Sequence record: MH051913
Reading direction: 5' to 3' (one strand)
Source of the DNA: Enterobacteria phage vB_EcoM_IME281
DNA length: 64,000 nt
Position 1 is the first letter of the stretch, and every line of letters starts with the position of its first letter. Under the pieces are notes generated by a model that had not been told where the DNA came from, ran no database searches, and saw nothing but the letters and a program-made list of their open reading frames with translations. A program made the position numbers and the translations under genes. Shown here piece by piece: positions 16,032 through 54,412 of the stretch.

Positions 16032-16526
16032 ATGGATATTTTTGATATGTTACGTCAAGACGAAGGTCTTGATTTAAATCTTTATAAAGACACTGAAGGT
16101 TATTGGACTATTGGTATTGGCCAGTTAGTTACCAAGAACCCATCTAAAGATGTTGCTCGTGCTGAACTTGATAAGCTTATGGGCCGAGTTTGTAATGGTC
16201 GTATTACTATGGCTGAAGCCGAACAACTCTTTAACCGATCGGTTGAAAATGCTCGTAGAGCTATTCTGCGTAATCCTAAATTGAAACCTGTTTACGATGT
16301 ATTGGACGAAGTTCGTCGTTGTGCTTTAATTAACATGGTCTTCCAAATGGGTGAAGCAGGTGTAGCAGGGTTCACTAACTCTTTACGTATGCTCCAACAG
16401 AAACGTTGGAACGATGCGGCAGTTAACCTGGCTCAATCCCGTTGGTATAAACAAACCCCTAATCGTGCTAAGCGCGTGATTTCAACATTTAAAACAGGTA
16501 CTTGGAAAGCATATGAAAACTTATAA
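16032..16526 (+). CDS. e: endolysin (T4 lysozyme e)
   Basis: 164 aa; [56 protein letters not shown] near-collinear with T4 lysozyme. Confidence 0.95.
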
Positions 16527-32889: not shown

Positions 32890-33005
32890 GCCCTGGTATA
32901 CCGCTCGATGGGAAACCGTCGAGCCAGAGGAACCGGTTTACAACGATTCCGAAATAGATTATAATGAACCTTCAAACAATGATTTAATCGATATGGAGTT
33001 TGGAT

Positions 33006-33179
33006 ATGAGTACCAAAATTGAAGTTGGCCGTCATAAAGGCCGTCTGATTGAACATTCACTTTACGAATTGTCGGATTCCCGTAAGTTACCTGATGAAGA
33101 ATCTGCTTTAATTTTTGCTGCAGCCGATTATATTCATTGGCTTGAAGCTCAACTTCGCTTTTCCGATGAGGCCTTCTGA
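33006..33179 (+). CDS. hypothetical protein (57 aa)
   Basis: Not in ORF track; stop overlaps ATG of next gene. Confidence 0.35.
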   Translation: MSTKIEVGRHKGRLIEHSLYELSDSRKLPDEESALIFAAADYIHWLEAQLRFSDEAF

Positions 33180-33481
33180 TGAATTTATTTGAATTTGAAG
33201 GTAAAACTGTTCGTATTACTGAAGAAGATGTCGACCATTATGTTGACTGGCCTGAATTAAACGGCAATCGCGGTTTTGAGTCAGGCGAGCTCTGTGAAGG
33301 TGCTGAAGTTAAAATCTTGAAGGTGGAGATTTCTCCATGGGGCAATCCTGAAATCATTGGCGTAACTGCTATCGAATTCAATGGTAAGGTATACGAATAC
33401 ACTAAAGAAATGTTTGAAGATACTAAAGCTTCATTCTGGTGTTTTTGGACTAACGATGATAATGAATTTGAGGTCGCATGA
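33179..33481 (+). CDS. hypothetical protein (100 aa)
   Basis: ORF track. Confidence 0.45.
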   Translation: MNLFEFEGKTVRITEEDVDHYVDWPELNGNRGFESGELCEGAEVKILKVEISPWGNPEIIGVTAIEFNGKVYEYTKEMFEDTKASFWCFWTNDDNEFEVA

Positions 33482-33663
33482 AAACTGCATTAGTCTATAC
33501 CGAAAAGTTAAATGGTGACAAAGTCTGGAAACTTCTTATTAAAGGAAGTCCTACCGACCAGTTTATGGCCACCTGTATTGGATTGTATACTCGTCCTACT
33601 AAAAAGATGATTCGTCAATTTAAACGGTTACATCGCTCGTTTTATAGTACATTCGAAAAATAA
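33478..33663 (+). CDS. hypothetical basic protein (61 aa)
   Basis: ORF track. Confidence 0.4.
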   Translation: MKTALVYTEKLNGDKVWKLLIKGSPTDQFMATCIGLYTRPTKKMIRQFKRLHRSFYSTFEK

Positions 33664-33698
33664 TAAATACCCTTATCTAATACAGGTAAGGGTTTATT

Positions 33699-34172
33699 AT
33701 GTTGTTGACTGGTAAATTATACAAAGAAGAAAAACAAAAACTTTATGATGCACAGGATGGTAAGTGTTTAATCTGTACCCGTGAATTAAACCCTGATGTT
33801 CAAAGCAACCACCTTGACCATGACCACGAATTAAACGGGCCAAAAGCTGGTAAGGTTCGTGGGTTACTATGCAACCTGTGTAATGCCGCAGAAGGACAAA
33901 TGAAGCATAAGTTTAACCGCTCCGGTCTTAAAGGTCAAAACGTTGACTACCTCGAATGGTTAGAGAATTTGCTTGTCTATCTGAAATCTGATTATACTGA
34001 AAACAATATCCATCCTAATTTCGTTCCTGATAAAACCAAAGAGTTCAGTAGATTAGGTAAGGAAGAAATGATTGCTGAAATGCTTTCACACGGAATGACT
34101 TATAATGAATCTGACACAAAGAAACAAATGGTCGATTCATTTAAAAAACAACTGAGGAAATCGCTTAAATGA
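33699..34172 (+). CDS. 49: endonuclease VII (Holliday junction resolvase)
   Basis: 157 aa; MLLTGKLYKEEKQK..CLIC..HLDHDHELNGPKAGKVRGLLCNLCNAAEG near-identical to recalled T4 gp49. Confidence 0.9.
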   Translation: MLLTGKLYKEEKQKLYDAQDGKCLICTRELNPDVQSNHLDHDHELNGPKAGKVRGLLCNLCNAAEGQMKHKFNRSGLKGQNVDYLEWLENLLVYLKSDYTENNIHPNFVPDKTKEFSRLGKEEMIAEMLSHGMTYNESDTKKQMVDSFKKQLRKSLK

Positions 34173-34282
34173 TTAATTTTTATGCCTTAACCGAATCTAT
34201 GAACGATATTATCCGGCGCATGGGTGTTGAGTATCCTGCTCAATGGTTATTTGTTGTAACTAATACATGGACTATCGTATGA
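34169..34282 (+). CDS. hypothetical micro-protein (37 aa)
   Basis: Not in ORF track; GAGGA RBS; ATGA overlaps at both ends. Confidence 0.3.
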   Translation: MINFYALTESMNDIIRRMGVEYPAQWLFVVTNTWTIV

Positions 34283-34494
34283 ATAAATTTCGTAATGCTG
34301 CTTCTGATATCCTGGCCAATATTACATTTGTCCTGTTTATTGTGTGCCTTTTAATCCTGGTTATCCCATTTGGATTGCTGTTCGTTATTATTGGTGCATT
34401 GAGTACTGAAAAGGGTCTTGAAGAGTCTGAGTTCGACAAACGAATCCAGGCTGTTCATAGTGTTATTTCTAAAATGATGAAGGTGAAAGAATGA
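34279..34494 (+). CDS. small membrane protein (71 aa)
   Basis: M5 of track ORF 34267; central hydrophobic helix. Confidence 0.45.
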   Translation: MNKFRNAASDILANITFVLFIVCLLILVIPFGLLFVIIGALSTEKGLEESEFDKRIQAVHSVISKMMKVKE

Positions 34495-34787
34495 AACGTT
34501 TTGAAGAGTATGTAGCTTTGAATTGGACCGCATGGGACAAGTTCGGTAATGACTGGTACTTCCATGACTGTGACCTGAACCCTGAATTCTTTAAAGGTAA
34601 GGAAGACGACCTTAAGGACATCTATGCTCTGTCAGAGATTCATGGTATTAAACCAACGGTTTATTTCTCTTTTGATGACACGGGTTTCCTTATCCAGATT
34701 TACGTCCCATACGGAACTAATGAAGACGAAGTTATCAAAACTTGGGACTACCAAGGAGTTATTTCCTGTGGACCAAAAGTTAACTAA
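34491..34787 (+). CDS. hypothetical protein (98 aa)
   Basis: ORF track. Confidence 0.45.
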   Translation: MKRFEEYVALNWTAWDKFGNDWYFHDCDLNPEFFKGKEDDLKDIYALSEIHGIKPTVYFSFDDTGFLIQIYVPYGTNEDEVIKTWDYQGVISCGPKVN

Positions 34788-35085
34788 AATTGAGATTTAC
34801 GGTATCCCTGAGACAGTCATGCGCTGTCCAGGGTGCATTGCAGTTCTATCGCTCCTAAATTCCCTTTCTATCCAATATACTTTCTATCCTGTGATTAACC
34901 AGACGCCGTCAGGCGCAGTATATGATAAGCCTCTTATAGTATCATTGGCCAAACGTGCCGGCTTCAAGAGCTTAGCTATACGCTATCCTGTAATCTTTGT
35001 TGATAATAAGAAAATAGAAAATATTCCTGCCTTCAAATCCCTTTTGATTGAGCTTGGCTATGACCGAGATTTAATTGAAGATTAG
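34768..35085 (+). CDS. glutaredoxin-like protein (about 105 aa; GTG start inferred)
   Basis: IEIYGIPETVMRCPGCIAV CxxC motif like NrdC/NrdH N-terminus; AAGGAG 9 nt upstream of GTG 34768; ATG 34720 alternative. Confidence 0.4.
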   Translation: MDQKLTKIEIYGIPETVMRCPGCIAVLSLLNSLSIQYTFYPVINQTPSGAVYDKPLIVSLAKRAGFKSLAIRYPVIFVDNKKIENIPAFKSLLIELGYDRDLIED

Positions 35086-35086
35086 T

Positions 35087-35115
35087 GTTTACTTCCTCTC
35101 CTCACGTGTTATAGT
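35087..35115 (+). promoter_or_regulatory. early promoter/stem-loop cassette
   Basis: GTTTAC, 17 nt, TATAGT; CCTCACGTGT/ACACATGAGG inverted repeat. Confidence 0.55.
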
Positions 35116-35144
35116 CTATCCTATCAACACATGAGGAGAACATT

Positions 35145-35321
35145 ATGACTATCCAAGATAAAGAAATTAAAGTCAACCAGTATTATTCAATCAACGGCAA
35201 AGCTGTTCTAGTAACTGAAATATCTAGCCTAGACGTGTGGTATACCATAATTGACCTTAATATTAAAATGATTTGTGACCGTGGTGTATTTTGTTCGATA
35301 GCTAAGGAAATTAAATTATGA
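35145..35321 (+). CDS. hypothetical protein (58 aa)
   Basis: Not in ORF track; GAGGAG RBS after promoter cassette 35087-35115. Confidence 0.4.
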   Translation: MTIQDKEIKVNQYYSINGKAVLVTEISSLDVWYTIIDLNIKMICDRGVFCSIAKEIKL

Positions 35322-35572
35322 GCCTGAAATTGCATTCAATGAAAAATGTCATCACCCTTAATCTGGATGATGAGCGCCTAATTTTTCTCACCGTCACTGA
35401 TAAGAATATTGAAATTGCAAATGGTCCTAAGACTTATTGCTGTCCTGTTAAGAATTGGAAGCATGTAACCTTTTTGACCCTGACCGACCGTCTGAAAGAC
35501 CTTAAGTTGGATTTGGATATCAAAGACATCCAGTACATTAAAAACCTTATTGGATACAAACTGTTGAGGTAA
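35318..35572 (+). CDS. hypothetical protein (84 aa)
   Basis: ORF track. Confidence 0.45.
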   Translation: MSLKLHSMKNVITLNLDDERLIFLTVTDKNIEIANGPKTYCCPVKNWKHVTFLTLTDRLKDLKLDLDIKDIQYIKNLIGYKLLR

Positions 35573-35574
35573 CT

Positions 35575-35868
35575 ATGGGTAAAACTATCCGTCGTAAAGA
35601 ATTGCCATCTAGAGATTTTAATTGCATTGCTAGACGTAAAGCACCTGATGGCGTATCGGAAGAAACTTTGAATGAAAATATCTTCCGGTCAGATAAATGG
35701 AAACGCTTTAGCGGCGTTGATTCTGAAGTTAAGAATGAAATGAACCGCCAACTTCGTAAAGAAGTGAGAAAACTGAAAAAAGATGTTTACAGCGACGATG
35801 AACCTGATTACAATACTTCTCATCGAGTTGCAAAACGTAAATCAAACGAATGCTATCGTTACAGCTGA
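35575..35868 (+). CDS. hypothetical basic protein (97 aa)
   Basis: ORF track. Confidence 0.45.
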   Translation: MGKTIRRKELPSRDFNCIARRKAPDGVSEETLNENIFRSDKWKRFSGVDSEVKNEMNRQLRKEVRKLKKDVYSDDEPDYNTSHRVAKRKSNECYRYS

Positions 35869-35875
35869 GGAAAAT

Positions 35876-36007
35876 ATGAATATCAAACGTATGCTTTTTA
35901 AACAAGGATTATACACTTTAAATGTTACTCCAAAAGGCGATACGACTAAGTGGTCAGTAAATGACTGGATTAAATTTATTGATGAAAATGGCAACTGGAA
36001 AATTTAA
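35876..36007 (+). CDS. hypothetical micro-protein (43 aa)
   Basis: M32 of track ORF 35783; GAGGAAAA RBS. Confidence 0.35.
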   Translation: MNIKRMLFKQGLYTLNVTPKGDTTKWSVNDWIKFIDENGNWKI

Positions 36008-36208
36008 ATGAATCCTGAATCTAAATTATCACAACGAATTGCTGAAGCCCGTCGTCAGTTCTTTGAAAATATGATAGCTCAAGGTATTGATGACGAAGTT
36101 TTTCTAAACTGGTTTTGGAATAACAAATATTCAAAATGCGCAGGAGCAATATTAATATCAGCCGCAATGATGTATGAAGGTTGGAAAGGTGCATTAGCAC
36201 AAAAATAG
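36008..36208 (+). CDS. hypothetical protein (66 aa)
   Basis: ORF track. Confidence 0.4.
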   Translation: MNPESKLSQRIAEARRQFFENMIAQGIDDEVFLNWFWNNKYSKCAGAILISAAMMYEGWKGALAQK

Positions 36209-36237
36209 TTTACAAACTCTTGGGACCAGAGTATAAT
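36208..36237 (+). promoter_or_regulatory. early promoter with hairpin
   Basis: GTTTAC, 18 nt, TATAAT; GGACCA/TGGTCC inverted repeat. Confidence 0.55.
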
Positions 36238-36277
36238 GGTCCTATGGATTATAAATTTTTAAACTGAGGAAATTATT

Positions 36278-36607
36278 ATGTCACAAGCTATTAAAAACGT
36301 ACTGAACTCTTTCGCTTTCGATAAAGTTAATGAACTGATGAAAACTGGCTTTGTAACTCCTCAGGTTCTTGACCAATGGGTTGCTGAACTGTTACCAATC
36401 ATGCACTCTAAAGACCAAAAAATTGGTAAGAACGGTATTCGTGAAATCCTGGTTCAATATATTCTCGACGAGTTTGATGTGGCCGCCTTTGGTGTCGAAT
36501 CTAAAGCTTGGCAGCCAGGTGAAATCACAGACAAAACCATCCGTCGTATGAAGAATCAACGTAAGAAAAAATTCGTTGACCTGAAAATTGTTAAGGCAGC
36601 TAAATGA
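36278..36607 (+). CDS. hypothetical protein (109 aa)
   Basis: GAGGAAA RBS; cassette promoter 36208-36237. Confidence 0.5.
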   Translation: MSQAIKNVLNSFAFDKVNELMKTGFVTPQVLDQWVAELLPIMHSKDQKIGKNGIREILVQYILDEFDVAAFGVESKAWQPGEITDKTIRRMKNQRKKKFVDLKIVKAAK

Positions 36608-36852
36608 GTAATTTGCCTGAAGATGTATCGGTTATAATAGTCCTTAAAGCTTTAGCCGGTTTCCAACGTACCCCTATGATGAATAATAGTGAAACCATTA
36701 TAAAAGCGGCTAATATGCTAAGTGGAAGTCATCGCGATTTCAGGATATTTCCTATAAGCTCTAAGACCACTTATATGAAAATGCCCGATCCTAAAATAGC
36801 TTGGGATGAAGGCATGACATTAAATGAATTTGAGGATTATTTAAATGATTAA
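36604..36852 (+). CDS. hypothetical protein (82 aa)
   Basis: ORF track; ATGA coupling. Confidence 0.45.
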   Translation: MSNLPEDVSVIIVLKALAGFQRTPMMNNSETIIKAANMLSGSHRDFRIFPISSKTTYMKMPDPKIAWDEGMTLNEFEDYLND

Positions 36853-37111
36853 AATAAAACTCTCTAATTACGATAAAAACTTGGAAATGATTGCTATGAA
36901 AGAAGAACTCCTGAATGATGTCCGCTTTACAGGTTATGCAGTCCAATTTAATGGTGATGGGGCTCTCCAGATTGAAGGTGGCCACTTTATTATCGAATAT
37001 GAATTTAAACGGTACTGGCTATACGCTAAAGATGAAGTTGGCGGTATTGATTACGTCGATGAGTTTGATAATCTTGATGATGCATTAGAAGGAGCTCGAT
37101 TCCTACAATGA
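36845..37111 (+). CDS. hypothetical protein (88 aa)
   Basis: ORF track. Confidence 0.45.
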   Translation: MIKIKLSNYDKNLEMIAMKEELLNDVRFTGYAVQFNGDGALQIEGGHFIIEYEFKRYWLYAKDEVGGIDYVDEFDNLDDALEGARFLQ

Positions 37112-37371
37112 AACCCATATCCACCACCCTCGCTTATGAAGGTCTCGGATTTTTCTTAATAGATAACTGTATGGATGTTGAGTTTGTTTGTGGTGAGACT
37201 TCTTTAGTATGGAAGTCTCATATTTCCAAATACAACCATCGGGATTATCCGGAACTTTTTAAAGAATTTTGCGGATATATGTCCGAACATGGATGTACTG
37301 ATACAATTTCTTATCCCGAGTTCATACAAATCCTTGAAACAGTATTTAAGGCTTATTGCTTACTCCGTTGA
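37108..37371 (+). CDS. hypothetical protein (87 aa)
   Basis: ORF track. Confidence 0.45.
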   Translation: MKPISTTLAYEGLGFFLIDNCMDVEFVCGETSLVWKSHISKYNHRDYPELFKEFCGYMSEHGCTDTISYPEFIQILETVFKAYCLLR

Positions 37372-37398
37372 TGCTTTAAACGGGTCTCCAAATACTAT
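37372..37398 (+). promoter_or_regulatory. candidate MotA-dependent middle promoter for gene 55
   Basis: MotA-box-like TGCTTTA, 14-nt gap, TACTAT (TATAAT also at 37401-37406). Confidence 0.4.
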
Positions 37399-37437
37399 GA
37401 TATAATAGACCTATGATTTGAGTTATCTGAGGTAACA

Positions 37438-37995
37438 ATGACCGAAATTAAACTGACTAAAAATAACTATGTAAATAATAAGGAGCTTCTGAAAGCCATT
37501 ACCCAGTGGAAAACAGAACTCCGAGAAAATACCGACCCTAATAAAATAGTTCGTCAGAACGACGTTATCGGCTTGGCTATTATGCTCATTGCTGAAGGCC
37601 TTTCTAAGCGTTTCAACTTCTCCGGATATACCCAATCTTGGAAGCAAGAAATGATTGCTGATGGAATCGAAGCCTCTATTAAAGGTCTTCATAACTTCGA
37701 CGAAACAAAATACGACAACCCACATGCATATATCACTATGGCTTGTTTTAATGCCTTTGTTCAGCGTATCAAGAAAGAACGTAAAGAAATGGCAAAGAAA
37801 TACAGCTACTTCGTCCATAACGTTTATGACGCCAATGACGACGACATGGTAGGTATCGCAGATGAAACTTTTATCCAGGATATTTACGACAAAATGACTC
37901 AGTATGAAACCTCTTTAGTTAAAGCGCTAGGGTCTGATAAGAGCGCCGAATCTAAAGTTGGTGAGCTGGATTTTTTATATGGAACTCAAGATTAA
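37438..37995 (+). CDS. 55: late transcription sigma factor gp55
   Basis: 185 aa; [62 protein letters not shown] matches recalled T4 gp55. Confidence 0.9.
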
Positions 37996-38206
37996 CCTGG
38001 TAGGCCTTTTAGAAGAAGTAGATGGAGAGTATTCGGCAATTCCTTATGTTCTTAAAATGTATCTTAAGGATATTGCCAAGCTTCCTATTGTAATAGACCC
38101 AAAACACCCTGATTCGGTAGAAATTAAAGCTGAAAAAGGAACATTAACTTATAACTATCACGTTACCGACGAAGATTTTTATATAAAACTGAATTACAAG
38201 GATTAA
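37979..38206 (+). CDS. hypothetical protein (75 aa)
   Basis: M8 of track ORF 37958; weak RBS. Confidence 0.35.
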
Positions 38207-38207
38207 T

Positions 38208-38519
38208 ATGCAAAGCACCGACATTTCTCAATTGACCGAAGAGCAAATTGAAGAAGCCCAGAAGCGTTTAGAAGAGAATAATGCTAAAGAAGCCGCTTCT
38301 CAAGCTGCCAAAATTCTTAAAAAGAATGCCCGTGAAATTAAGCGTCTTAATACACACGCACAGGGCGCTGTTCTCGAAAACAATTTCGAAGCTTACAAAT
38401 ATGCTATAATTAAATTACGTGGTATTTACCGTCAACCAACTACTGACGAAATCGTTAGAGTTATGTGGGAAACTACGCGTAAACAGATTTGGGAAATTAT
38501 CAATGGCGCTAGTAAATAA
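38208..38519 (+). CDS. hypothetical protein (103 aa)
   Basis: ORF track. Confidence 0.45.
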   Translation: MQSTDISQLTEEQIEEAQKRLEENNAKEAASQAAKILKKNAREIKRLNTHAQGAVLENNFEAYKYAIIKLRGIYRQPTTDEIVRVMWETTRKQIWEIINGASK

Positions 38520-38703
38520 ACCCTTTAAACGGCTTCTTATTGGAGCCGCCTTCAGACTTCGCTCATACGGTAATATTTGTATTAAGCAGACTGAAACCGA
38601 ATATAAAATGGTTGGGCAGTATTCCGATGAAATTTTTCGGATTGAGCCTGTAGCCAAGGTTTGGGTTGATTCACATCAACTTAAGAAGTGGTGGCAACGA
38701 TGA
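38503..38703 (+). CDS. hypothetical basic protein (66 aa)
   Basis: M29 of track ORF 38419. Confidence 0.3.
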   Translation: MALVNKPFKRLLIGAAFRLRSYGNICIKQTETEYKMVGQYSDEIFRIEPVAKVWVDSHQLKKWWQR

Positions 38704-38803
38704 TAACATGGACAGGTGGCTAATGAAAGACGAACATCCGGATTTTTAAGCTATGAATGACGAATACGAAAAAGTTTAAGAGGTTTTATGAATGACGAAT
38801 TCG

Positions 38804-38965
38804 ATGGATTTTGATAAGATTAAATCTGACAAAAATGAGATGATACTTAAATTTGAAGCTGCTCGTATTAAAGCGGAAAATGAAGGTACTATTACCTATA
38901 AGCCTATCAAGTTCAGGTCTTCTCATGAACCTCTGTATGGCGTATTAATTGGTAAAGGAGCTTAG
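38804..38965 (+). CDS. hypothetical protein (53 aa)
   Basis: Not in ORF track; follows three tandem 8-codon mini-ORFs; stop lies inside terminator hairpin. Confidence 0.35.
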   Translation: MDFDKIKSDKNEMILKFEAARIKAENEGTITYKPIKFRSSHEPLYGVLIGKGA

Positions 38966-38976
38966 GCTCCTTTTTT
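38957..38976 (+). terminator. rho-independent terminator
   Basis: GGAGC-TTAG-GCTCC plus T6. Confidence 0.6.
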
Positions 38977-39019
38977 GCTTTATATTCGGATGATAAAATG
39001 AACCAACTGAGGAGAACAT

Positions 39020-39163
39020 ATGGAATTACTTTTAGGATATGTCGTGTTATTCATGGCATTCTACACATTCACACGAGCCTGTTGGATAGGATTCTTTTCT
39101 ACTCCTGATGGGTTCATCTCAATAATTTTATTTTGCATTGCGATAACGGTGCTCGGCTTATGA
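39020..39163 (+). CDS. small membrane protein (47 aa)
   Basis: Not in ORF track; GAGGAGAA RBS; stop overlaps gp47 ATG (ATGA); hydrophobic. Confidence 0.4.
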   Translation: MELLLGYVVLFMAFYTFTRACWIGFFSTPDGFISIILFCIAITVLGL

Positions 39164-40182
39164 AAATATTAAACACTGGTGACTGGCACCTTGGAGTGAA
39201 GGCCGATGATGTGTGGGTACAAAATATCCAACGTCAAGGTATCCAAGACGCTATCAATTATTCTAAAGCAAATGGTATTACCGTGTGGATTCAATACGGT
39301 GATATCTTTGACGTTCGTAAAGCAATTACCCATAAGTGTATGGAATTCGCTCGCGAAATCTCTGATTTGCTTAAAGCTAATGGCATTACCATGTATACCA
39401 TTGTTGGTAATCATGATATGCACTACAAAAATACCTTGACTCCTAACGCAGCTTCTGAAGTTCTGGGTAAATATGACCATATCAAGGTTATTGAGAAACC
39501 TACTACGGTTAACTTTGATGGCACCGAAATTGATTTGATTCCATGGATGTGTGAAGAAAACACTACTGATATCATGGACCATATCAAAAATACCACAGCA
39601 GATTTCTGTATTGGACATTGGGAATTAAATGGTTTCTATTTCTATAAAGGAATGAAATCTCATGGTTTAGAACCTGATTTCCTTAAAAAGTATAAGCAAG
39701 TTTGGTCAGGTCACTTCCACACTATTTCTGATGCAGCAAACGTCAAGTACATTGGTACTCCATGGACCCTTACTGCAGGTGATGAGAACGACCCTCGTGG
39801 TTTCTGGATTTTCGATACCGAAACTCATAAAATGGATTTCATCATTAATGAAACCTGTTGGCATCGTAAGATTCATTATCCTAACGAGACTATCGATTAC
39901 AAAGATTTTACAAATATCGCAGTTCGTGTTATAGTCGATAAAATCGATGACGGTCTTACTAAGTTCGAATCAGAGCTTGAAAAGGTTGTTCACTCTTTAC
40001 GTATTGTGTCTAAGGTAGATAATAGTGTTGATATCGATGATTCTGAAGAGGAAGACGAAGTTAAATCCCTCTTGGATATGATGTATGATTATATCGATGC
40101 CCTTCCTGATGGCCACACTGAAGCCGATGTTAAAGCCCTTAAGACTATGGCTGCACAACTTTATAATGAGGTTACACGATGA
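39160..40182 (+). CDS. 47: recombination endonuclease subunit gp47 (Mre11-like)
   Basis: 340 aa; MKILNTGDWHLGVK..GDIFD..GNHD phosphoesterase motifs; near-collinear with recalled T4 gp47. Confidence 0.9.
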   Translation: MKILNTGDWHLGVKADDVWVQNIQRQGIQDAINYSKANGITVWIQYGDIFDVRKAITHKCMEFAREISDLLKANGITMYTIVGNHDMHYKNTLTPNAASEVLGKYDHIKVIEKPTTVNFDGTEIDLIPWMCEENTTDIMDHIKNTTADFCIGHWELNGFYFYKGMKSHGLEPDFLKKYKQVWSGHFHTISDAANVKYIGTPWTLTAGDENDPRGFWIFDTETHKMDFIINETCWHRKIHYPNETIDYKDFTNIAVRVIVDKIDDGLTKFESELEKVVHSLRIVSKVDNSVDIDDSEEEDEVKSLLDMMYDYIDALPDGHTEADVKALKTMAAQLYNEVTR

Positions 40183-40442
40183 CTTTAGATGAATTCAAAA
40201 AATCGGGACTTGAACTGGAACACGACTGTATAGTTATTGATGATGATGGTCAACCTAGTACAATTAAGTTCTGGTTTGAAGCCGTGAGCACTCGTGATAC
40301 CGGCGAGCTTATTAAAGTTTATGTTGCTACCGATTGGGCTGTAGAATTTAGCTTTAATGTAATGGTAGATGATACTCCAGAAACATTAATTCATATGGCT
40401 GAATCATGCATCAAGGATGCTTATAACGATGAAGACTTTTAA
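40179..40442 (+). CDS. hypothetical acidic protein (87 aa)
   Basis: ORF track; between 47 and 46. Confidence 0.45.
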   Translation: MTLDEFKKSGLELEHDCIVIDDDGQPSTIKFWFEAVSTRDTGELIKVYVATDWAVEFSFNVMVDDTPETLIHMAESCIKDAYNDEDF

Positions 40443-42111
40443 GTTAAAGAAAGTAACGTATAAAAATATTATGTCGGTCGGGCAGCAGCCCATTACAATC
40501 CAACTTGATAAGGTCCAAAAGACCTTAGTCACTGGTAAAAATGGTGCAGGGAAATCAACATTCCTTGAAGCTGTAACATTTGCTCTGTTCGGTAAGCCTT
40601 TTCGTGATGTTAAGAAAGGGCAGTTGATTAACTCAAGTAACAAGAAAGACCTTTTGGTCGAACTGTGGATGGAATATGATGTCAAAGAATACTATATCAA
40701 ACGCGGGCAAAAACCCAACGTTTTTGAAATCTCTTGTGACGGTGAACGTCTTGATGAATCTGCCAGCAGTAAAGACTTCCAAGCGGAATTTGAACAGCTT
40801 ATCGGAATGTCCTACGCAAGCTTCAAACAAATTGTCGTACTCGGCACAGCTGGATATACCCCTTTTATGGGCCTATCCACTCCTGCAAGAAGAAAACTCG
40901 TCGAAGACCTCTTAGAGGTTTCCGTATTAGCGGATATGGATAAGTTGAACAAATCTTTGATTCGTGAGACTAATAGCCAAATCCAAGTAATAGACGTTAA
41001 GCAAGATTCTATTACCCAACAAATTAAAATTTATAATGACAACGAAGAACGCCAACGTAAATTATCTGGCGAGAACGCGGCCCGTCTACAATTAATGTAT
41101 GATGAGCTCGTTAAAGAAGCCAGGACTGCGAAGGCGAGCATAGAATCCCTGACTGATGAATTACTCAATGTTATCGTAGATGATGACCCTAGCGATTCCA
41201 TGAGTGACCTGAGTAATAAAGGATTTGCAATCAAAAATGATATGGCAACCTTTACAAAGGTGGTTAAGTTATACGAAACCGGTGGTCACTGCCCTACGTG
41301 TATGCAAGGGTTAGAAGAGCATGGTAATATCCTTACTAAAATTAAGGATAAAAACTTTGAGCTTCAAAAATCTTTGGATAAGATTAATGAGCAATACCAA
41401 GAGCTCAAGCTCATTAAAGACCAAGTAACCGAACAACGCAATAAAGCATTGGCTATTAAATCTCAGATAGCTACTCATAAGCAGCAAGCCATTACTGCTG
41501 TAGAGAAAGCCAAAAAGGTTAAGGTATTAATTGACCAAGCGGCAGCTGAGTTCGTAAGTAATGCCGAAGAGATTGCTGCGCTTCAAGCAGAGCTTGATAA
41601 AATCGTCTCTACCAAATCGTCCTTGGTAATGGAAAAATATCATCGTGGAATTCTGACAGAAATGTTGAAGGATGCAGGTATTAAAGGTTCCATTATTAAG
41701 AAATACATTCCTATCTTTAATAAGCAGATTAATTCTTATTTGAAGATTATGGAAGCGGACTACGTCTTTACCCTAGACGAAGAATTCAATGAGACGATTA
41801 AATCACGTGGACGTGAAGACTTTAGTTATGCTTCATTTTCACAGGGTGAGAAAGCACGTATTGATATCGCACTACTTTTTACCTGGCGTGATATTGCTGA
41901 AAAAGTCAGTGGAGTCCACATTAGTACATTAGTGTTGGATGAAGTTTTTGATGGAGCAGTTGACGCTGAGGCTGTTAAGGCGATTGCAAGTATTCTTAAT
42001 AGTCTTGAAGACAGTAATGTTTTTATAATCAGCCACAGGGACCATGACCCTCAAGCATATGGTCAGCATTTACAAATGAAAAAGGTTGGTCGATTTACAA
42101 TTATGGAATAA
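40429..42111 (+). CDS. 46: recombination endonuclease subunit gp46 (Rad50/SbcC-like ATPase)
   Basis: 560 aa from M5 of track ORF, same length as T4 gp46; Walker A GKNGAGKST, CxxC hook, C-terminal LILDEVFDG. Confidence 0.9.
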   Translation: MKTFKLKKVTYKNIMSVGQQPITIQLDKVQKTLVTGKNGAGKSTFLEAVTFALFGKPFRDVKKGQLINSSNKKDLLVELWMEYDVKEYYIKRGQKPNVFEISCDGERLDESASSKDFQAEFEQLIGMSYASFKQIVVLGTAGYTPFMGLSTPARRKLVEDLLEVSVLADMDKLNKSLIRETNSQIQVIDVKQDSITQQIKIYNDNEERQRKLSGENAARLQLMYDELVKEARTAKASIESLTDELLNVIVDDDPSDSMSDLSNKGFAIKNDMATFTKVVKLYETGGHCPTCMQGLEEHGNILTKIKDKNFELQKSLDKINEQYQELKLIKDQVTEQRNKALAIKSQIATHKQQAITAVEKAKKVKVLIDQAAAEFVSNAEEIAALQAELDKIVSTKSSLVMEKYHRGILTEMLKDAGIKGSIIKKYIPIFNKQINSYLKIMEADYVFTLDEEFNETIKSRGREDFSYASFSQGEKARIDIALLFTWRDIAEKVSGVHISTLVLDEVFDGAVDAEAVKAIASILNSLEDSNVFIISHRDHDPQAYGQHLQMKKVGRFTIME

Positions 42112-42127
42112 GCCTCTTATTGAGGCT
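42111..42127. terminator. hairpin between convergent genes (possible bidirectional terminator)
   Basis: AGCCTC-TTATT-GAGGCT; T-rich flank on plus strand only. Confidence 0.4.
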
Positions 42128-42833
42128 TCATTTTACAGTTATCGAAATGCCAACGATTCATATTACCGGAATTCCCTTGTTTACCACAATGAGGGCATTC
42201 TACCTTCTTTTCTGATTTTTTGCGTCCGTTAGGATTTTTCTTACAAAAAACTTTATGAGCCGCAATAACACAGGATTTTCCTGAAAGGCCACAGAATTCA
42301 CATTCCACAATTTTATGGACCATGTTTTCTAGGCCTTTCTTTATTTTTAATTTTTGCTCTTCAGATATAGAGCGGTCTACTTTATTAGGGCCTTTAGGAC
42401 AGTTATCGAAATGCCATCTGTTCATATTGCCTACCAATCCAGTTTTGCCACAGTGTGGACAGGTAACTCTAGGCTTTTTTAAAGCGGAAATTGACATTTT
42501 CTTTCTGGTTTCTTCCGAGAATTCTTTATCCTTTTGGGCTTCTGAATTCTTACGACGAAGCCATCCAAATAATTTATTTTTAGACCTATCAGCTTTTGGT
42601 GAGCTAACTGTCATCATTCTTGCTGCATAGACTAACGATGCGTTATCTGGATGGATTTTAACTAACAACTGGTGAGCCAAGTAATGTTCTTCAGGTGTTA
42701 AGTCTACCAAGTTTAAAGCGTCATCCGTCCCACCCATGCATTGTGGTATAATGTGATGACGTTCTTTATAGGTAGTTAAATTTCTATTAACTGCTCGTTG
42801 AATAAGCTTTTCGTATATTGATTTATAATTCAT
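42117..42833 (-). mobile_element. free-standing HNH homing endonuclease gene (238 aa)
   Basis: Only opposite-strand gene in the replication block; MNYKSIYEKL start typical of T4 Mob/Seg enzymes; HNH core HHIIPQCMGGTDDALNLVDLTPEEHYLAH; two C-terminal repeats CPHCGK..GNMNRWHFDNC; inserted where T4 has only 45.2. Confidence 0.75.
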
Positions 42834-42876
42834 TATCAAATCCTTATTTGACACAGCGACCGATAAAGATATTTAT

Positions 42877-49675: not shown

Positions 49676-50176
49676 ATGAAAAAGTTAATTATCGCAATGA
49701 GTATGCTCCTATCAGGTTGCGCAGTCCAATATGGTGATGCAGTTTCTGCTGATGAAGTTGGTAAAGCTCGTATCGCAGCTGAACAGAAACAATTCGACGG
49801 CGAAATGAAATTCCGTGCCGGTTCTGGACTTGTGTACACCCGAGCTAATAATCAATGTGGTAATAACTGTGCAAAATATGCTCAAAGGGAAATCGAATTC
49901 CAACGTGAACAAGAGTCTAAGCGTGAAGCGGTACTAGCCAAACACCAGGCAGAAATGAAGCGCCAAGATGATTTGTACAAAAAGCAGAAACTGTATGCCA
50001 TGTGTGTAAACCATATCAATCTACAGATTTCTGTCCACGAGGCTCGTTATTACGAAATGCTCGAAACCGAGAGCTTCGATAAGGCTCGTGATTATAAGAA
50101 ACAAATCAACAAGCTTAAGACCAAAGTGCCTGCTGCAGTAGAACAGTGCATGGAATACGGTAAAGATAAGATTTAA
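49676..50176 (+). CDS. putative lipoprotein with coiled coil (166 aa)
   Basis: Signal peptide with lipobox LLSGC. Confidence 0.5.
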   Translation: MKKLIIAMSMLLSGCAVQYGDAVSADEVGKARIAAEQKQFDGEMKFRAGSGLVYTRANNQCGNNCAKYAQREIEFQREQESKREAVLAKHQAEMKRQDDLYKKQKLYAMCVNHINLQISVHEARYYEMLETESFDKARDYKKQINKLKTKVPAAVEQCMEYGKDKI

Positions 50177-50237
50177 GCAATAGAAATTTATTAAAAAATA
50201 GTGTATAATGTACCTACATTCACTTGAGGAACAGATA

Positions 50238-51911
50238 ATGAAAAAGGTTGTTATTTTAGGCGCAGGTCTTGGCTCACGGTTGTATCCAATTACTAACGAA
50301 ATCCCAAAGGTATTGGTTAACTACAAACAACATACGGTATTAAAACATTTGTATGATTTGTATAGTAACCAATCAGATGAAATTATTCTGGTTATTCACA
50401 GCAAATTTAACGACCTCGTTAAAGGCTATATTAAATCCATTAACATGATTACTGGTGATAAGCCTAAATTCACTATTCGTAACGTTGATGTTGCTAATGG
50501 TTCAGCTCATGCTATCGATTGCATTGCCGAAGATATCATTGGCCATAATGTCCTGTTTAACTGGTGTGACATCATTCCTATCGGTCATAAAGTTGAATGG
50601 GGTAACGACTATTGTTATACCTATGGAACTGACTGTCGCTTTACATTTGAAGAACCGTACTTACGTGAAATTGGTACCGGTGGCGGTGTAGTTGGTTTGT
50701 ATCAGGTAGCCAATTGGACAGGTTTCGACCGTTCTAATTATGGCGAAGACCTTGCTGATAACCTGGATTCAATGGTCTATTTGACTGAACGTAAACTGGA
50801 TTTTGTAGTTGATGTCGGTGACAAATTGAAACTTGCCAAGGCCCATGAAGATTCTGAAATTAACCGTGAATTTAATAAATTAGAGTTCACCGAGAATCTG
50901 GCTATTAAAGTACCAACTAACGAATTAGGTAAAGAAATTCAATCTAAAGAAATCAATTGGTATAATTCTATTGATTCTGAATTCGTTCCTAGCATTGTAG
51001 ACTTTTCTCCAGGCGAATTCATTAAAATGGAACGTATCTTTGGTCGTACCATGGCAGATGCCTACCGGTTTATGTCCAAAGAAACTAAAGTCCTCATGGT
51101 TTATAAGGTCATTAGTGCATTACGTTCATTCGGTGGAACTATCGATAACCCGTCCGATGAGCAGTGGTATTCCGATGTTAAGAAAGAAGTATTGGACAAG
51201 GTCCTTATTCGTAATGCTTCTATTGCCGGATTGATTGAAGGCTTTGCTCCACAGGGCATTACCCATGTTAACGATTTCAAAGTAGGCGACCCCGAAAAAC
51301 TTCTCCGCCATGCACTAGAAATTCTGTCCGAACATAAAGAACCGTACCAACTTATTCACGGCGACCCGCACTACAGTAATATTATGTTGTCGGATGAAGG
51401 TGATATTAAAATCATCGACCCGCGTGGTTATTTTGGTAATAGTTCTAAAGGCCCTGCGATTTATGATGAAGCTAAGGTGCTTTATTCTATCGATGGCTAT
51501 GACAAATTTAACTCAGACCCTCTATGGGGTGGATTAACTCGTAACGGAACCCGTGTATTCGTTGATATCGAAAAGGTTATGCCTTTAGACGATATTCCTA
51601 TGTGCACATTTAAGCACAAGCTCTGGATTGCTGTTATTTGGATGGCTCTGGCAGGTTACTTTAAGAATAACCCTCTGAAAGCTCTGGGTGCTTATTATAA
51701 CGGTTTGTATCAACTGAGTGTGCTGCTTAAGCGGCATCCTCGTAAGCGTAAGCTTATCACAGGTGAATTTGTCGATGAAGTTCGTGACCCTATCACGGCT
51801 CAAATTATTACTCGTTGCCCTGATAAGTGGGTTTTGCTTGACCAGGAAACTGGTGTAAAATATAAACCTACAGGTTCTACTGAACTCCACAAACAATGGA
51901 AGAAAATTTAA
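50238..51911 (+). CDS. bifunctional sugar-1-phosphate nucleotidyltransferase / APH-type kinase (557 aa)
   Basis: N-terminal ILGAGLGSRLYPIT..PKVLV matches NDP-sugar pyrophosphorylase G-x-G-x-R signature; C-terminal LIHGDPHYSNIML..IIDPRGYFG matches HGDxHxxN kinase motif; GAGGAA RBS (M11 of track ORF). Confidence 0.6.
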   Translation: MKKVVILGAGLGSRLYPITNEIPKVLVNYKQHTVLKHLYDLYSNQSDEIILVIHSKFNDLVKGYIKSINMITGDKPKFTIRNVDVANGSAHAIDCIAEDIIGHNVLFNWCDIIPIGHKVEWGNDYCYTYGTDCRFTFEEPYLREIGTGGGVVGLYQVANWTGFDRSNYGEDLADNLDSMVYLTERKLDFVVDVGDKLKLAKAHEDSEINREFNKLEFTENLAIKVPTNELGKEIQSKEINWYNSIDSEFVPSIVDFSPGEFIKMERIFGRTMADAYRFMSKETKVLMVYKVISALRSFGGTIDNPSDEQWYSDVKKEVLDKVLIRNASIAGLIEGFAPQGITHVNDFKVGDPEKLLRHALEILSEHKEPYQLIHGDPHYSNIMLSDEGDIKIIDPRGYFGNSSKGPAIYDEAKVLYSIDGYDKFNSDPLWGGLTRNGTRVFVDIEKVMPLDDIPMCTFKHKLWIAVIWMALAGYFKNNPLKALGAYYNGLYQLSVLLKRHPRKRKLITGEFVDEVRDPITAQIITRCPDKWVLLDQETGVKYKPTGSTELHKQWKKI

Positions 51912-52294
51912 TGTCGCATCGAGTAGAAAATAAGCCACATTTATGTTTTGATATCGATAACACAATCACGATTTGGAACCATGACCGTGATTATGAGAAC
52001 TTTAAACCGGACACCGAAATGGTGTCCATGATTAATAAGCTTTATGATGAAGGGTACGAGATTACATTATTCACTGCCCGCGGCATGACTTCATGTGGCC
52101 CAGGTCGAATCTTGGTTGAAGTAGTTCCTGCATTGGTTAAGAACCTTGAAAAGATTGGATTGAAATATCATAATCTGCTTACGCATAAGCCGAGTTATAC
52201 TTTTATCATCGATGACCGAGCAATCCGTCCTGACCACTTTAAAGAAATGGTTCGTGAAGGAACTCTTGATAGTTATAAGGCCTATCATCCATGA
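51911..52294 (+). CDS. HAD-family phosphatase-like protein (127 aa)
   Basis: Motif I CFDIDNTIT; motif II-like LFTARG; TAATG coupling to upstream gene. Confidence 0.5.
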   Translation: MSHRVENKPHLCFDIDNTITIWNHDRDYENFKPDTEMVSMINKLYDEGYEITLFTARGMTSCGPGRILVEVVPALVKNLEKIGLKYHNLLTHKPSYTFIIDDRAIRPDHFKEMVREGTLDSYKAYHP

Positions 52295-52827
52295 ATCCAA
52301 AAATCATTGTTATAGACGGCCCGGATAATTCCGGGAAGTCCACTTTAATTAAAAATCTGTTATCCAATAAGAAATACCGCCTTATTGATTTTCCTAAAAA
52401 GATTAATGGCAAGTGTATTTCATTAGGAACTGATAACGATAAGGCTTTAGTTGAAACTCTGTATAAGTTTTTAGACCCTAATTTCGTTTATATCCTTGAC
52501 CGTGGTTATCCAAGTAATATTGTTTACTCAGGATTCCTTCGTGGTGAAATGGACCCTTATGTAGAACTGGAAGATTGGAAAGGGTTTAAATCCGAATTTA
52601 ACGTTATCGAGGTTATTTTAACTCGCAATCCATTAGACGAAGACTTCGAAGACGACCTTATTAAATTAACCAAAGATGAGTTCAACCTAACTATCCGGCA
52701 ATACGAAACATGTTTTGAAAACGTGTTTAAAATCTTAAATCATGACGGCCATAATAATTTGCTTAATGTTGATATGGTAGAATTAAAACGTCTGAACGAA
52801 TATATTGAAAATAAGGTGAATAAATGA
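52291..52827 (+). CDS. P-loop nucleotide/nucleoside kinase-like protein (178 aa)
   Basis: Walker A VIDGPDNSGKST near N-terminus, like thymidylate/dNMP kinases. Confidence 0.5.
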   Translation: MNPKIIVIDGPDNSGKSTLIKNLLSNKKYRLIDFPKKINGKCISLGTDNDKALVETLYKFLDPNFVYILDRGYPSNIVYSGFLRGEMDPYVELEDWKGFKSEFNVIEVILTRNPLDEDFEDDLIKLTKDEFNLTIRQYETCFENVFKILNHDGHNNLLNVDMVELKRLNEYIENKVNK

Positions 52828-53522
52828 AACACATTACCGCTGTTAGTTTTGAAAATGCATTTAAACAAATGAACGAAGAAATCCTGGAAGCTCCACAGTT
52901 TGCAGTTGATTCTCGTATCGGACGTTGTTATGAAATTGGTTCTGCTTCGGTAGAAGTACTGGATGCAAGCACCTATAAATTCACCGACCCACGTATCAAT
53001 CGTATTAGTTATGAATATGCCGAATCCTTTTGGAAATTTATGATTTCTGGTGGTACTGACGCTGCCGAAGCATTTAAGGAATACCCTAATGTTGCTAAGT
53101 TCATTGATAAGCCGAAAAGTGATGTATTGCCTGCAAACTTCAACACTTTCTATGGACCTCGAATTGTGGCCCAACTCCCAGCCCTACTTAAAGAGCTTAA
53201 AGAAAAGGCTAACTCGCGAAGAGTTGTGTTCCAGATTCTCCAAGAACAAGACCAAGCCCTCCTTGATTCTGACGAATCCTTAGAATATCCTTGCACCGAT
53301 TCGGTAACGTATTATATTCGTGACGGACGTTTGTATGCACACACCCATATGCGTTCACAAAACTGCGCCGTTGTTATGCAGCTGGATTTCTATCTGCAGG
53401 GTAAACTGATGGCATTTATTGCTGAACAGTGTGGTGTCGGTTTAGGTACATATTCCCACACCATGGTAAGTGCACACGTGTTTGAACGTGATTTTGACTA
53501 CGTCCGAGGTTTCCTGAAATGA
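52824..53522 (+). CDS. 42: thymidylate synthase-fold pyrimidine hydroxymethylase (probable dCMP hydroxymethylase)
   Basis: YPCT active-site Cys context and HMRSQNCAVVMQLDFY..HTMVSAHVF align with thymidylate synthase family (MYQRSCD..NIASY..DTHLY); occupies gene 42 position. Confidence 0.55.
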   Translation: MKHITAVSFENAFKQMNEEILEAPQFAVDSRIGRCYEIGSASVEVLDASTYKFTDPRINRISYEYAESFWKFMISGGTDAAEAFKEYPNVAKFIDKPKSDVLPANFNTFYGPRIVAQLPALLKELKEKANSRRVVFQILQEQDQALLDSDESLEYPCTDSVTYYIRDGRLYAHTHMRSQNCAVVMQLDFYLQGKLMAFIAEQCGVGLGTYSHTMVSAHVFERDFDYVRGFLK

Positions 53523-54412
53523 GTTTGTTTATCGTTCCTATTTTCAGTATGCGTAGTTACGAAACAGGTGAATATGCCGTCCTTAAGGACGGCAATTTTC
53601 AACTCCATTTAAATCGTGCTCGTCCAGGTGATTATCTGGCTTATCCTAGAAATTCGAGCGATATCAAAGAATGCATTGAATTATTCCCAGAACTGAATTT
53701 CGTACCACTTTGGTATAAAGAAAATGCTTATGAAACCCGTAAACATTTCTGGTCTGAAAATGAGTTTGTAGTCGATTCACTAATCGAATACTATGATTGC
53801 TCAGGACTGGTGACCGATATCACCGGTTATGATGGTGCTCATACTGTACAATTCAACTTTAATATCACAATGGACCCTGAAGTTCCTCGTTATTATATCG
53901 ACGAGTTCATTGATATTGATGTGGCTTCAGTTGAACGTTCACTTTATACTACAGTCTTGAATCAATGCCAGAAAGACGTCCTGGTGTCACGAGGTGCATC
54001 CTCTGATAAGATTTTTGTAGACCAAAAGGTAATTAATCCTGCAGTAATTGAGCGTTACTCTGAAGGTCTAGCGCCTATTAAAATTGATGGTATTTTCCAT
54101 CCATTCCGTATTTCGGATAAGTGTTATCAATTCGAAAGAGTTGTAGACCAAGCTGCCGCTGAAGGTGCTCGTCTTTATATCACCGACCCTAATGATTCAT
54201 TTAAGCGCGAAGACTATCGTCCTGATGTAGAGATTATTAAATTCAAACCGAGTAAGGTTGAATATTATCAAATTCTGAAATCAAGACCACATATCATTTA
54301 TCATGAGAACCCAGGTTTAGTATTCCATCCTGGTCTGGCTGAATTCATTTATTTCGGTGCCAATATTCATTCTGAATACGAAATGCCACGTTATGAGGAC
54401 GTAGTATGCTAG
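53519..54412 (+). CDS. hypothetical protein (297 aa), candidate DNA sugar transferase by position
   Basis: Sits where T4 has beta-gt, downstream of the NDP-sugar module; no glycosyltransferase motif recognised. Confidence 0.4.
   Translation: MSLFIVPIFSMRSYETGEYAVLKDGNFQLHLNRARPGDYLAYPRNSSDIKECIELFPELNFVPLWYKENAYETRKHFWSENEFVVDSLIEYYDCSGLVTDITGYDGAHTVQFNFNITMDPEVPRYYIDEFIDIDVASVERSLYTTVLNQCQKDVLVSRGASSDKIFVDQKVINPAVIERYSEGLAPIKIDGIFHPFRISDKCYQFERVVDQAAAEGARLYITDPNDSFKREDYRPDVEIIKFKPSKVEYYQILKSRPHIIYHENPGLVFHPGLAEFIYFGANIHSEYEMPRYEDVVC

Follow-up and report, generated by a model that had tools for sequence, protein, structure and literature searches.

In phage T4 the anaerobic ribonucleotide reductase genes nrdD and nrdG follow gene 49, and the glucosyltransferase gene a-gt lies between genes 55 and 47. 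The locus considered here has the same three anchor genes with only small ORFs between them, and the question it raises is whether the missing genes have been lost, have moved elsewhere, were never acquired, or are absent through some artefact. The whole stretch of DNA analysed, hereafter the window, is 64 kb long and is, by its sequence, part of the genome of a T4-like coliphage of the genus Dhakavirus (JS98/JS10 type). Over 7.5 kb (33000-40500) it has 99.5% nucleotide identity to Escherichia phage UP19 and ~97% to JS98 and JS10, and UP19 blocks at 88-98% identity cover most of the window (~98% over most of it). Taken as a whole, the observations are, with high confidence, best explained by a Dhakavirus that lacks nrdD and nrdG throughout its genome, lacks a-gt, and carries genes for a putative modification pathway of the RB69 type instead.

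The arrangement of the genes is given in Table 1. As a preliminary description of this DNA had stated, both intervals contain only small ORFs of 37-109 aa: that between genes 49 and 55 (34173-37437; 3265 bp) has 13 tightly packed plus-strand genes of 37-109 aa, and that between 55 and 47 (37996-39159; 1164 bp) has five, of 47-103 aa. Fourteen of these small genes have T4 small-gene counterparts (55.8, nrdH, 55.6-55.1, a-gt.5-a-gt.2 and 47.1) and four do not. In the run at 35145..36208, identity to T4 is 57-98% for the four T4-homologous genes, and four of the five genes match Pfam families (DUF7290, DUF5499, DUF5484 and DUF5490), 55.6 having no match. In both intervals the non-coding gaps measure a mere 42-95 bp, too short to hide a large gene. 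The one glutaredoxin-like ORF that had been pointed out is the T4 NrdH homologue (aligned over 103 aa, E=2e-37), in which the CxxC motif reads CPGC; its match to the Pfam Glutaredoxin family (E=0.0023) is weak and does not reach the cut-off. It may be noted that nrdH is kept although nrdD and nrdG are gone. Rfam matches in the window comprise three tRNAs only, with no group I intron or other structured RNA.

Table 1. Genes and junctions of the 49-55-47 region and of the modification cluster (positions in the window; percentages are identities).
Feature	Position	Strand	Basis
Gene 49, endonuclease VII, 157 aa	33699..34172	+	Pfam PF02945 (Endonuclease_7) and PF09124 (Endonuc-dimeris); 88.5% to T4 gp49
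orf37, 37-aa micro-gene	34169..34282	+	phrog_3350, E=8e-24 (PHROG)
55.8 homologue, predicted membrane protein	34279..34494	+	42% to T4 55.8; phrog_1930; JS98 annotation
98-aa ORF, RB69 ORF082c-like, without T4 counterpart	34491..34787	+	phrog_2749, E=3e-48; JS98 annotation
nrdH (T4 55.7), glutaredoxin-like redoxin	34768..35085	+	60% to T4 NrdH; CPGC motif
55.6	35145-35321	+	T4 homology; no Pfam match
DUF7290 gene, RB69 ORF079c-like	35318-35572	+	Pfam DUF7290
55.5	35575-35868	+	T4 homology; Pfam DUF
55.4	35876-36007	+	T4 homology; Pfam DUF
55.3	36008-36208	+	T4 homology; Pfam DUF
55.2, 109 aa	36278-36607	+	T4/PHROG/Pfam comparison; JS98 and UP19 annotation
82-aa ORF, missing in JS98	36604-36852	+	JS98 and UP19 annotation compared
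55.1	36845-37111	+	T4/PHROG/Pfam comparison; JS98 and UP19 annotation
DUF7200 gene, RB69 ORF072c-like	37108-37371	+	Pfam/PHROG; JS98 and UP19 annotation
Gene 55, late sigma factor, 185 aa	37438..37995	+	78% to T4 gp55, full length; JS98/UP19 annotation
a-gt.5	37979-38206	+	43-51% to T4 (range for a-gt.5-a-gt.2); PHROGs 1169, 951, 1648, 2140 for a-gt.5-a-gt.2
a-gt.4	38208-38519	+	as a-gt.5
a-gt.3	38503-38703	+	as a-gt.5
a-gt.2	38792-38965	+	as a-gt.5
Junction in place of T4 mobB and a-gt	38954..39026	+	blastn breakpoints against T4
Gene 47.1, 47 aa, membrane protein	39020..39163	+	80% to T4 47.1; phrog_6693
Gene 47, Mre11/SbcD-like nuclease subunit	39160..40182	+	71% to T4 gp47; Pfam Metallophos
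NTP-transferase/kinase	50238-51911	+	Pfam; RB69 p052:53 orthologue, 41-44%
Phosphatase-like gene, 132 aa	51896-52294	+	RB69 p051 orthologue, 61%
Nucleotide kinase	52291-52827	+	Pfam; RB69 comparison
ThyA-homologue, 5-hydroxy-dCMP synthase orthologue	52824-53522	+	80% to RB69 gp48
Arabinosyltransferase-1 orthologue, 297 aa	53519-54412	+	66-70% to RB69 gp46:47

A class III ribonucleotide reductase was taken to consist of a glycyl-radical NrdD of ~600 aa and a radical-SAM activase NrdG of ~156 aa, and a T4 glucosyltransferase to be a sequence homologue of a-gt (400 aa) or b-gt (351 aa). When the T4 and RB69 proteins NrdD, NrdG, a-gt and b-gt were used as tblastn queries, there was no match in the window at E<=0.01, in agreement with the absences first described for the two intervals. 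The suggestion made at the same time, that the missing functions may lie elsewhere in the genome, has in its favour only that the window is 64 of the ~171 kb of its own genome; for the genome as a whole the search was made in the near-identical UP19 (98-99.5%), the complete sequence of which gave no match to the same queries at E<=0.1 apart from one to a-gt. This last match covers 36 aa (52061-52168) of the 132-aa phosphatase-like gene, with E=0.027 for the window and 0.074 for UP19, and was rejected as due to chance. Profile HMMs built from four genera (NrdD) and five genera (NrdG) gave a best E>=2, and phmmer with a-gt and b-gt a best E=0.85, against six-frame pieces of the window and of the whole of UP19, for which the annotated ribonucleotide reductase is the aerobic nrdA/nrdB only. 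Similarly, a published HMM survey lists class I enzymes alone for JS98, JS10, IME08 and VR7 (Dwivedi 2013, PMC3653736 Table S1), and JS98 and RB69 have been described as lacking glucosyltransferase genes (Petrov 2010, PMC2993671). Since neither the window nor complete UP19 has a homologue, the genes are missing from the genome and not moved, and relocation of nrdD, nrdG and the glucosyltransferase genes is very improbable indeed. Under anoxia the phage would, from what is established of E. coli biology, depend on the NrdDG of its host.

The site of the missing reductase genes can be defined to the nucleotide. The start of nrdD overlaps the stop of gene 49 through ATGA in T4, in RB69 and also in more distant relatives, and in module-bearing relatives, T4 and RB69 included, a conserved micro-gene of 35-39 aa begins in the same manner on the stop of nrdG; the two RB69 junctions read TTAAAATGAAAATTG (49/nrdD) and GAAACATGATTAAATTG (nrdG/micro-gene). 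In the window, the stop of gene 49 overlaps the start of orf37 through ATGA (TTAAATGATTAAT), and orf37 sits precisely at the nrdD-nrdG place of T4 and RB69. The gene 49 stop codon is also the exact end of DNA homology to ~1000 other T4-type phages (query position 320-326). The possibility that orf37 is a fragment of nrdD or nrdG was rejected: it is a conserved micro-gene, 33% identical to an ORF that directly follows nrdG in RB69 (unannotated there) and with a G-x-E-[FY] motif in the family alignment, and no remnants of nrdD or nrdG were found in the 95-bp 49/55.8 junction. In the RefSeq record of JS98 orf37 is unannotated. The simplest reading is a derived state in which the stretch from one ATGA junction to the other was deleted, leaving a gap of exactly module size; gene 49 would thereby have been joined directly to the micro-gene through one ATGA with translational coupling kept. 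That the gaps instead reflect faulty assembly or a deletion mutant arising in the laboratory is vanishingly improbable; we found no supporting evidence, the uninterrupted 49/orf37/55.8 junction occurs in 46 independent phage records, the whole 7.5-kb layout without any 2-4 kb size difference in at least 30, and the junctions fall at exact gene boundaries with overlapping start and stop codons intact.

It could also be argued that the state without nrdD and nrdG is the ancestral one, the pair having entered the lineages of T4, RB69 and others by insertion at the boundary of gene 49 and the micro-gene. Clean ATGA junctions on both sides suit the insertion of a cassette as well as a deletion, and the module is missing in Kanagawavirus and Klebsiella phage Clarke_MM3 as well as in Dhakavirus. 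However, Tequatrovirus, Mosigvirus, Jiaodavirus, Pseudotevenvirus and Bragavirus all have 49-nrdD-nrdG, and even in the last two, which are distant, the 49-nrdD overlap is identical to that of the other three. Furthermore, gp49 of the window is closer to that of T4 (88%) and RB69 (84%) than to that of module-less Clarke_MM3 (69%), and therefore the absences are scattered among module-bearing lineages, as repeated loss predicts. An ancestral absence is on balance unlikely, although it retains some weight. Because four other genera examined keep 49-nrdD-nrdG, the absence of nrdD and nrdG is likely to be a derived loss, by parsimony over a handful of genera.

At the second site, a terminator-like hairpin (38954-38973; terminator scan) overlaps the stop of a-gt.2, and the T4 counterpart of the 42 bp at 38985-39026 is 2123 bp long. 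The spacer between a-gt.2 and 47.1 consists of this hairpin and the 42 bp, with no remnants of a-gt or mobB, and shares 35 nt at 94% identity with the RB69 a-gt.2/47 spacer; in T4, a-gt and its neighbouring homing endonuclease gene mobB form an insert specific to the T-even phages, with a-gt.2 on one side and 47.1 on the other. The compaction previously described is borne out: together the two intervals measure 4429 bp here and 9376 bp in T4, the difference being T4 nrdD-mobC-nrdG (3.94 kb) and mobB/a-gt (2.12 kb), minus ~1.1 kb of extra small ORFs.

A different DNA modification had been put forward as the setting of both absences. For glucosylation this stands, in that orthologues of an RB69-type arabinosylation pathway are present in the polymerase-uvsX interval, 11-15 kb downstream in the window, and would supply cytosine modification instead. 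The cluster (50238..54412) has 38-80% identity to RB69p045-p053 and includes predicted genes for UDP-arabinose synthesis (the p052:53 and p051 orthologues). The ThyA-homologue stands where T4 has gene 42, and the adjoining arabinosyltransferase-1 gene (the two together occupy 52824-54412) lies between it and uvsX, where T4 has b-gt; the 297-aa arabinosyltransferase-1 gene is carried by 351 phage records. RB69 gp48 has been demonstrated experimentally to make 5-hydroxy-dCMP with flavin and molecular O2, and Dhakaviruses are amongst the phages with a syntenic cluster, arabinosylated 5-hydroxycytosine in their DNA being inferred there from synteny only (Lee et al., NAR 2026, PMC13326640). From orthology, we infer the same chemistry for the DNA of the present phage. 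A homologue of the arabinose-5-phosphate isomerase p055 of RB69 was not found in the window or UP19, and host KdsD/GutQ might substitute for it; the second arabinosyltransferase (RB69 gp3, poly-arabinosylation) had no match in UP19 or the window at E<=1. The modification does not explain the loss of nrdD and nrdG, because RB69 has the cluster and keeps both genes.

A connection between the two absences through oxygen has nevertheless been considered. Since 5-hydroxy-dCMP synthesis needs O2, a phage that replaces all of its cytosine in this way could not finish its DNA anaerobically; an anaerobic ribonucleotide reductase would then be of little benefit, and might be lost repeatedly. The O2-dependent pathway is present in all three lineages found here without nrdD and nrdG (Dhakavirus, Kanagawavirus and Clarke_MM3; a small sample), and T4, in which hydroxymethylation is independent of O2, keeps them. 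Mosigvirus and Bragavirus have the pathway yet keep nrdD and nrdG, so that the link is at best one of relaxed selection and not a rule. The eight lineages examined by hand are too few for statistics, and Tegunavirus TG1 (a Yersinia phage) is uninformative, since no gene 49 was found in the stretch examined. We regard the link as improbable.

For annotation, the window is placed in Dhakavirus, its absences are genome-wide and not relocations, and the glucosyltransferase gap is tied to a 5-hydroxycytosine arabinosylation cluster of the RB69 type within the same window. The ATGA-to-ATGA module boundary, with its marker micro-gene, indicates how T4-type phages may gain or lose whole modules with translational coupling undisturbed. 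The discovery value is small, the observation being correct and ordinary: these small ORFs, and the lack of nrdD, nrdG and a-gt, are the normal gene content of the genus, and the lack of nrdDG and of glucosyltransferases in JS98-type phages is already published.

JS98, JS10 and UP19 have the same order as the window (49-orf37-55.8-...-55-a-gt.5..a-gt.2-47.1-47) and all lack nrdD, nrdG and a-gt; the window has an additional ORF (82 aa) compared with JS98, and its HNH homing endonuclease gene after gene 46, on the minus strand, is a different one from that of UP19. The T4 map given in the preliminary description is right, the full order being 49, nrdD (bearing the I-TevII group I intron)-mobC-nrdG, 55.8, nrdH...55, a-gt.2, mobB-a-gt, 47.1 and 47. 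The anchors 49, 55 and 47 and the named small genes all have T4 orthologues, at 42-98% amino acid identity and with gene order conserved; T4 additionally has nrdD, mobC, nrdG, mobB and a-gt, and the window the four small ORFs without T4 counterparts. RB69 resembles the window in having no a-gt between a-gt.2 and 47, in its polymerase-uvsX modification cluster, and in its ORF072c, ORF079c and ORF082c-like small ORFs. It differs in retaining nrdD-nrdG after gene 49, and in having p055, p050 and p003 (the second arabinosyltransferase), none of which is present in the Dhakavirus genome. Kanagawavirus (Edwardsiella phage PEi20, Enterobacter phage Q7622) and Klebsiella phage Clarke_MM3 belong to other hosts and genera, with little or no DNA similarity to the window past gene 49; like the window, however, they lack nrdD and nrdG, have the order gene 49, ATGA-overlapping micro-gene of 35-39 aa, 55.8 and nrdH, and carry the arabinosyltransferase-1 orthologue.

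The intervals between genes 49 and 55 and between genes 55 and 47 hold only small ORFs, as the preliminary description had it. The first contains 13 genes, all on the + strand and encoding 37-109 aa, in the order orf37 (a 37-aa micro-gene), 55.8, an RB69 ORF082c-like ORF, nrdH, 55.6, DUF7290, 55.5, 55.4, 55.3, 55.2, an 82-aa ORF, 55.1 and DUF7200; the second contains five (a-gt.5, a-gt.4, a-gt.3, a-gt.2 and 47.1). Each of these small genes either has a T4 counterpart at 42-98% amino acid identity or falls, with a strong E-value, into a Pfam DUF or PHROG family specific to phages; the one described as glutaredoxin-like is T4 NrdH. The non-coding gaps in both intervals are 42-95 bp. In the T4 reference record, by contrast, gene 49 is followed by nrdD (with the I-TevII intron inside), mobC, nrdG, 55.8 and nrdH on the way to gene 55, and a-gt.5-a-gt.2 are followed by mobB, a-gt, 47.1 and 47; the T4 layout in the preliminary description is thus correct, and the region was rightly judged to be compacted. 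The gap between 55.3 and 55.2 carries a near-consensus sigma-70-type promoter (TTTACA-17-TATAAT). The arrangement of pin looks like a tandem duplication in decay.

Features of the window and of the loci compared with it
Feature	Position (strand)	Description
pin (Lon inhibitor)	33000-33481	appears split, parts in swapped order
pin, first ORF	33000-33179	PinA profile positions 88-136, C-terminal part
pin, next ORF	33179-33481	PinA profile positions 3-74, N-terminal part
Gene 49, endonuclease VII	33699-34172	both Pfam domains; 88.5% identity to T4
orf37	34169-34282 (+)	micro-gene
nrdH	34768-35085 (+)	60% identity to T4 NrdH; CPGC motif
Promoter	36209-36237	55.3/55.2 gap
82-aa ORF	36604-36852 (+)	phrog_5589
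Gene 55	37438-37995	78% identity to T4
Hairpin and T-run	38954-38973	G+C-rich, terminator-like
alpha-gt site	38985-39026	42 bp
Gene 47	39160-40182	71% identity to T4; Metallophos domain
HNH homing endonuclease	42117-42854 (-)	245 aa
NTP-transferase + APH-type kinase		557 aa; RB69 p052:53 orthologue, 41-44%
Phosphatase-like protein		132 aa; RB69 p051 orthologue, 61%
Thymidylate-kinase-like protein		RB69 p045 orthologue, 38%
Thymidylate-synthase homologue		232 aa; RB69 p048 orthologue, 80%
297-aa protein		RB69 p046:47 orthologue, 66-70%
RB69 micro-gene	L009 24872-24985 (-)
T4 micro-gene	L003 about 16330-16454 (-)
TG1 gene 47	L015 1-1132	two annotated pieces

In a megablast against GenBank phages, window 33000-40500 matches Escherichia phage UP19 at 99.5% identity with 100% query coverage. 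JS98 and JS10 match it at ~97%; they are type members of Dhakavirus (Tevenvirinae, Straboviridae), and the window comes from a phage of this genus. Positions 97.5-161.5 kb of UP19 align block by block with most of the 64-kb window at 88-98% identity, except for one ~790-bp window stretch that carries a different homing endonuclease. The 245-aa HNH endonuclease, between genes 46 and 45.2, has a mobB/mobC-like N-terminus and C-terminal zinc ribbons, is encoded on the strand opposite to every neighbouring gene and is also found in MX01, Bp7, KIT01 and 04086; at this site UP19 carries a homing endonuclease that is unrelated to it and lies on the + strand. The 82-aa ORF is shared with UP19 but not with JS98, whose 55.2-55.1 interval is 233 bp shorter.

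The absence of the anaerobic (class III) ribonucleotide reductase (RNR) genes nrdD and nrdG and of alpha-gt was borne out by tblastn, profile HMMs and phmmer, with the complete UP19 genome standing in for genome-wide searches. With T4 NrdD (both exons), NrdG, alpha-gt and beta-gt and RB69 NrdD and NrdG as tblastn queries, there was no match in the window at E<=0.01, and none in UP19 at E<=0.1 save one of 36 aa to alpha-gt. That match (E=0.027 in the window, 0.074 in UP19) lies inside the 132-aa phosphatase-like gene and is attributed to chance. All six-frame pieces of >=15 aa from the window and UP19 were searched with profile HMMs of NrdD (from four genera) and NrdG (from five), the HMMER filters being switched off, and gave no match (best E=2); phmmer with alpha-gt and beta-gt on these pieces gave none either (best E=0.85). 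The UP19 annotation lists the aerobic genes nrdA and nrdB and no class III genes, and the only unassigned UP19 ORF of NrdD length is the 557-aa nucleotidyltransferase/kinase. The sensitive search for alpha-gt or nrdD/G homologues envisaged in the preliminary description therefore found none, and the absence stands; the idea that the missing functions may lie elsewhere in the genome finds no support as far as homologues of these genes are concerned.

Homology to T4 DNA covers gene 49 and ends at its stop codon (window 34169). Gene 49 homology is found in 1055 phage records: in about 1000 it ends exactly there, and in 46, which are Dhakavirus members, it runs uninterrupted through to orf37 and 55.8. 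Comparison of the window junction (TTAAATGATTAAT) with the RB69 49/nrdD junction (TTAAAATGAAAATTG) and the RB69 nrdG end (GAAACATGATTAAATTG) thus shows nrdD-nrdG to be bounded by two ATGA stop/start overlaps; in the window the module is absent in its full length, ATGA to ATGA. At the RB69 nrdG end an unannotated 37-aa ORF begins (MIKLNYIMDTINDMIFHFGPEFYSQYSLVLINVWLIN), the orthologue of which is orf37 (MINFYALTESMNDIIRRMGVEYPAQWLFVVTNTWTIV; E=8e-24 to phrog_3350). This conserved micro-gene (35-39 aa, with a G-x-E-[FY] motif and a hydrophobic tail) always comes after nrdG, or after gene 49 where nrdDG is missing, the two genes overlapping at ATGA. The T4, RB69 and JS98 reference records leave it unannotated, and the T4 reference copy has a frameshift in a T run.

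The nrdDG genes are also absent from Kanagawavirus (Q7622, PEi20) and Klebsiella phage Clarke_MM3, in which the micro-gene, its motif kept, comes right after gene 49, while 49-nrdD-nrdG is found in T4, RB69, Jiaodavirus, Pseudotevenvirus and Bragavirus. Repeated precise loss of nrdDG is the more parsimonious reading, and probably the correct one, because distant genera bear the module and, judged by gp49 identity, the lineages without it are interspersed with those that have it. It should be noted that NrdD is 98% identical between RB69 and T4, the adjoining NrdG only 80%, which suggests either very strong constraint or a recent exchange of nrdD between the two lineages. In Yersinia phage TG1, a GIY-YIG homing endonuclease gene lies between the two pieces of gene 47.

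At the alpha-gt site, 42 bp occupy the place of 2123 bp of T4 containing mobB and a-gt, and the hairpin overlaps the a-gt.2 stop codon. RB69 likewise passes directly from a-gt.2 to 47; a-gt is restricted to T-even-type phages (Petrov et al. 2010, PMC2993671).

The polymerase-uvsX interval encodes five proteins relevant to cytosine modification, and the 297-aa gene, between the ThyA homologue and uvsX, occupies the position of beta-gt in T4. RB69 DNA contains arabinosylated 5-hydroxycytosine; RB69 gp48 is a 5-hydroxy-dCMP synthase that needs flavin and O2, gp46:47 is assigned as arabinosyltransferase 1, and Dhakaviruses are named among the groups with a syntenic cluster (Lee et al., NAR 2026, PMC13326640). 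These functions, together with the RB69 orthologues in the window, therefore support the proposal of a different DNA modification. Compared with RB69, the Dhakavirus arabinosylation-type cluster (window 49676-54412) is reduced: the arabinose-5-phosphate isomerase (RB69p055), p050 and the second transferase gp3 (RB69p003) have no homologue in the window or the UP19 genome, which suggests mono-arabinosylation with arabinose-5-phosphate supplied by the host. The modification by itself is no explanation of nrdDG loss, since RB69 has both the cluster and nrdDG. That the anaerobic reductase was lost in connection, through oxygen, with a cytosine hydroxylase that needs O2 is speculative and improbable.

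Overall, the earlier interpretation holds for absence, compaction and modification, but not for relocation. Only three points are mildly new: the module boundary running exactly from ATGA to ATGA, the micro-gene that marks it and lacks annotation, and the speculative oxygen link. Dwivedi et al. 2013 (PMC3653736, Table S1) assign only class I RNR to JS98, JS10, IME08 and VR7, and classes I and III to T4, RB51 and RB69; according to Petrov et al. 2010 (PMC2993671), homologues of genes 42 and 56 occur in JS98 and RB69, but glucosyltransferase genes do not. Both absences are therefore already on record, and the lack of nrdDG and glucosyltransferases is ordinary for the genus.
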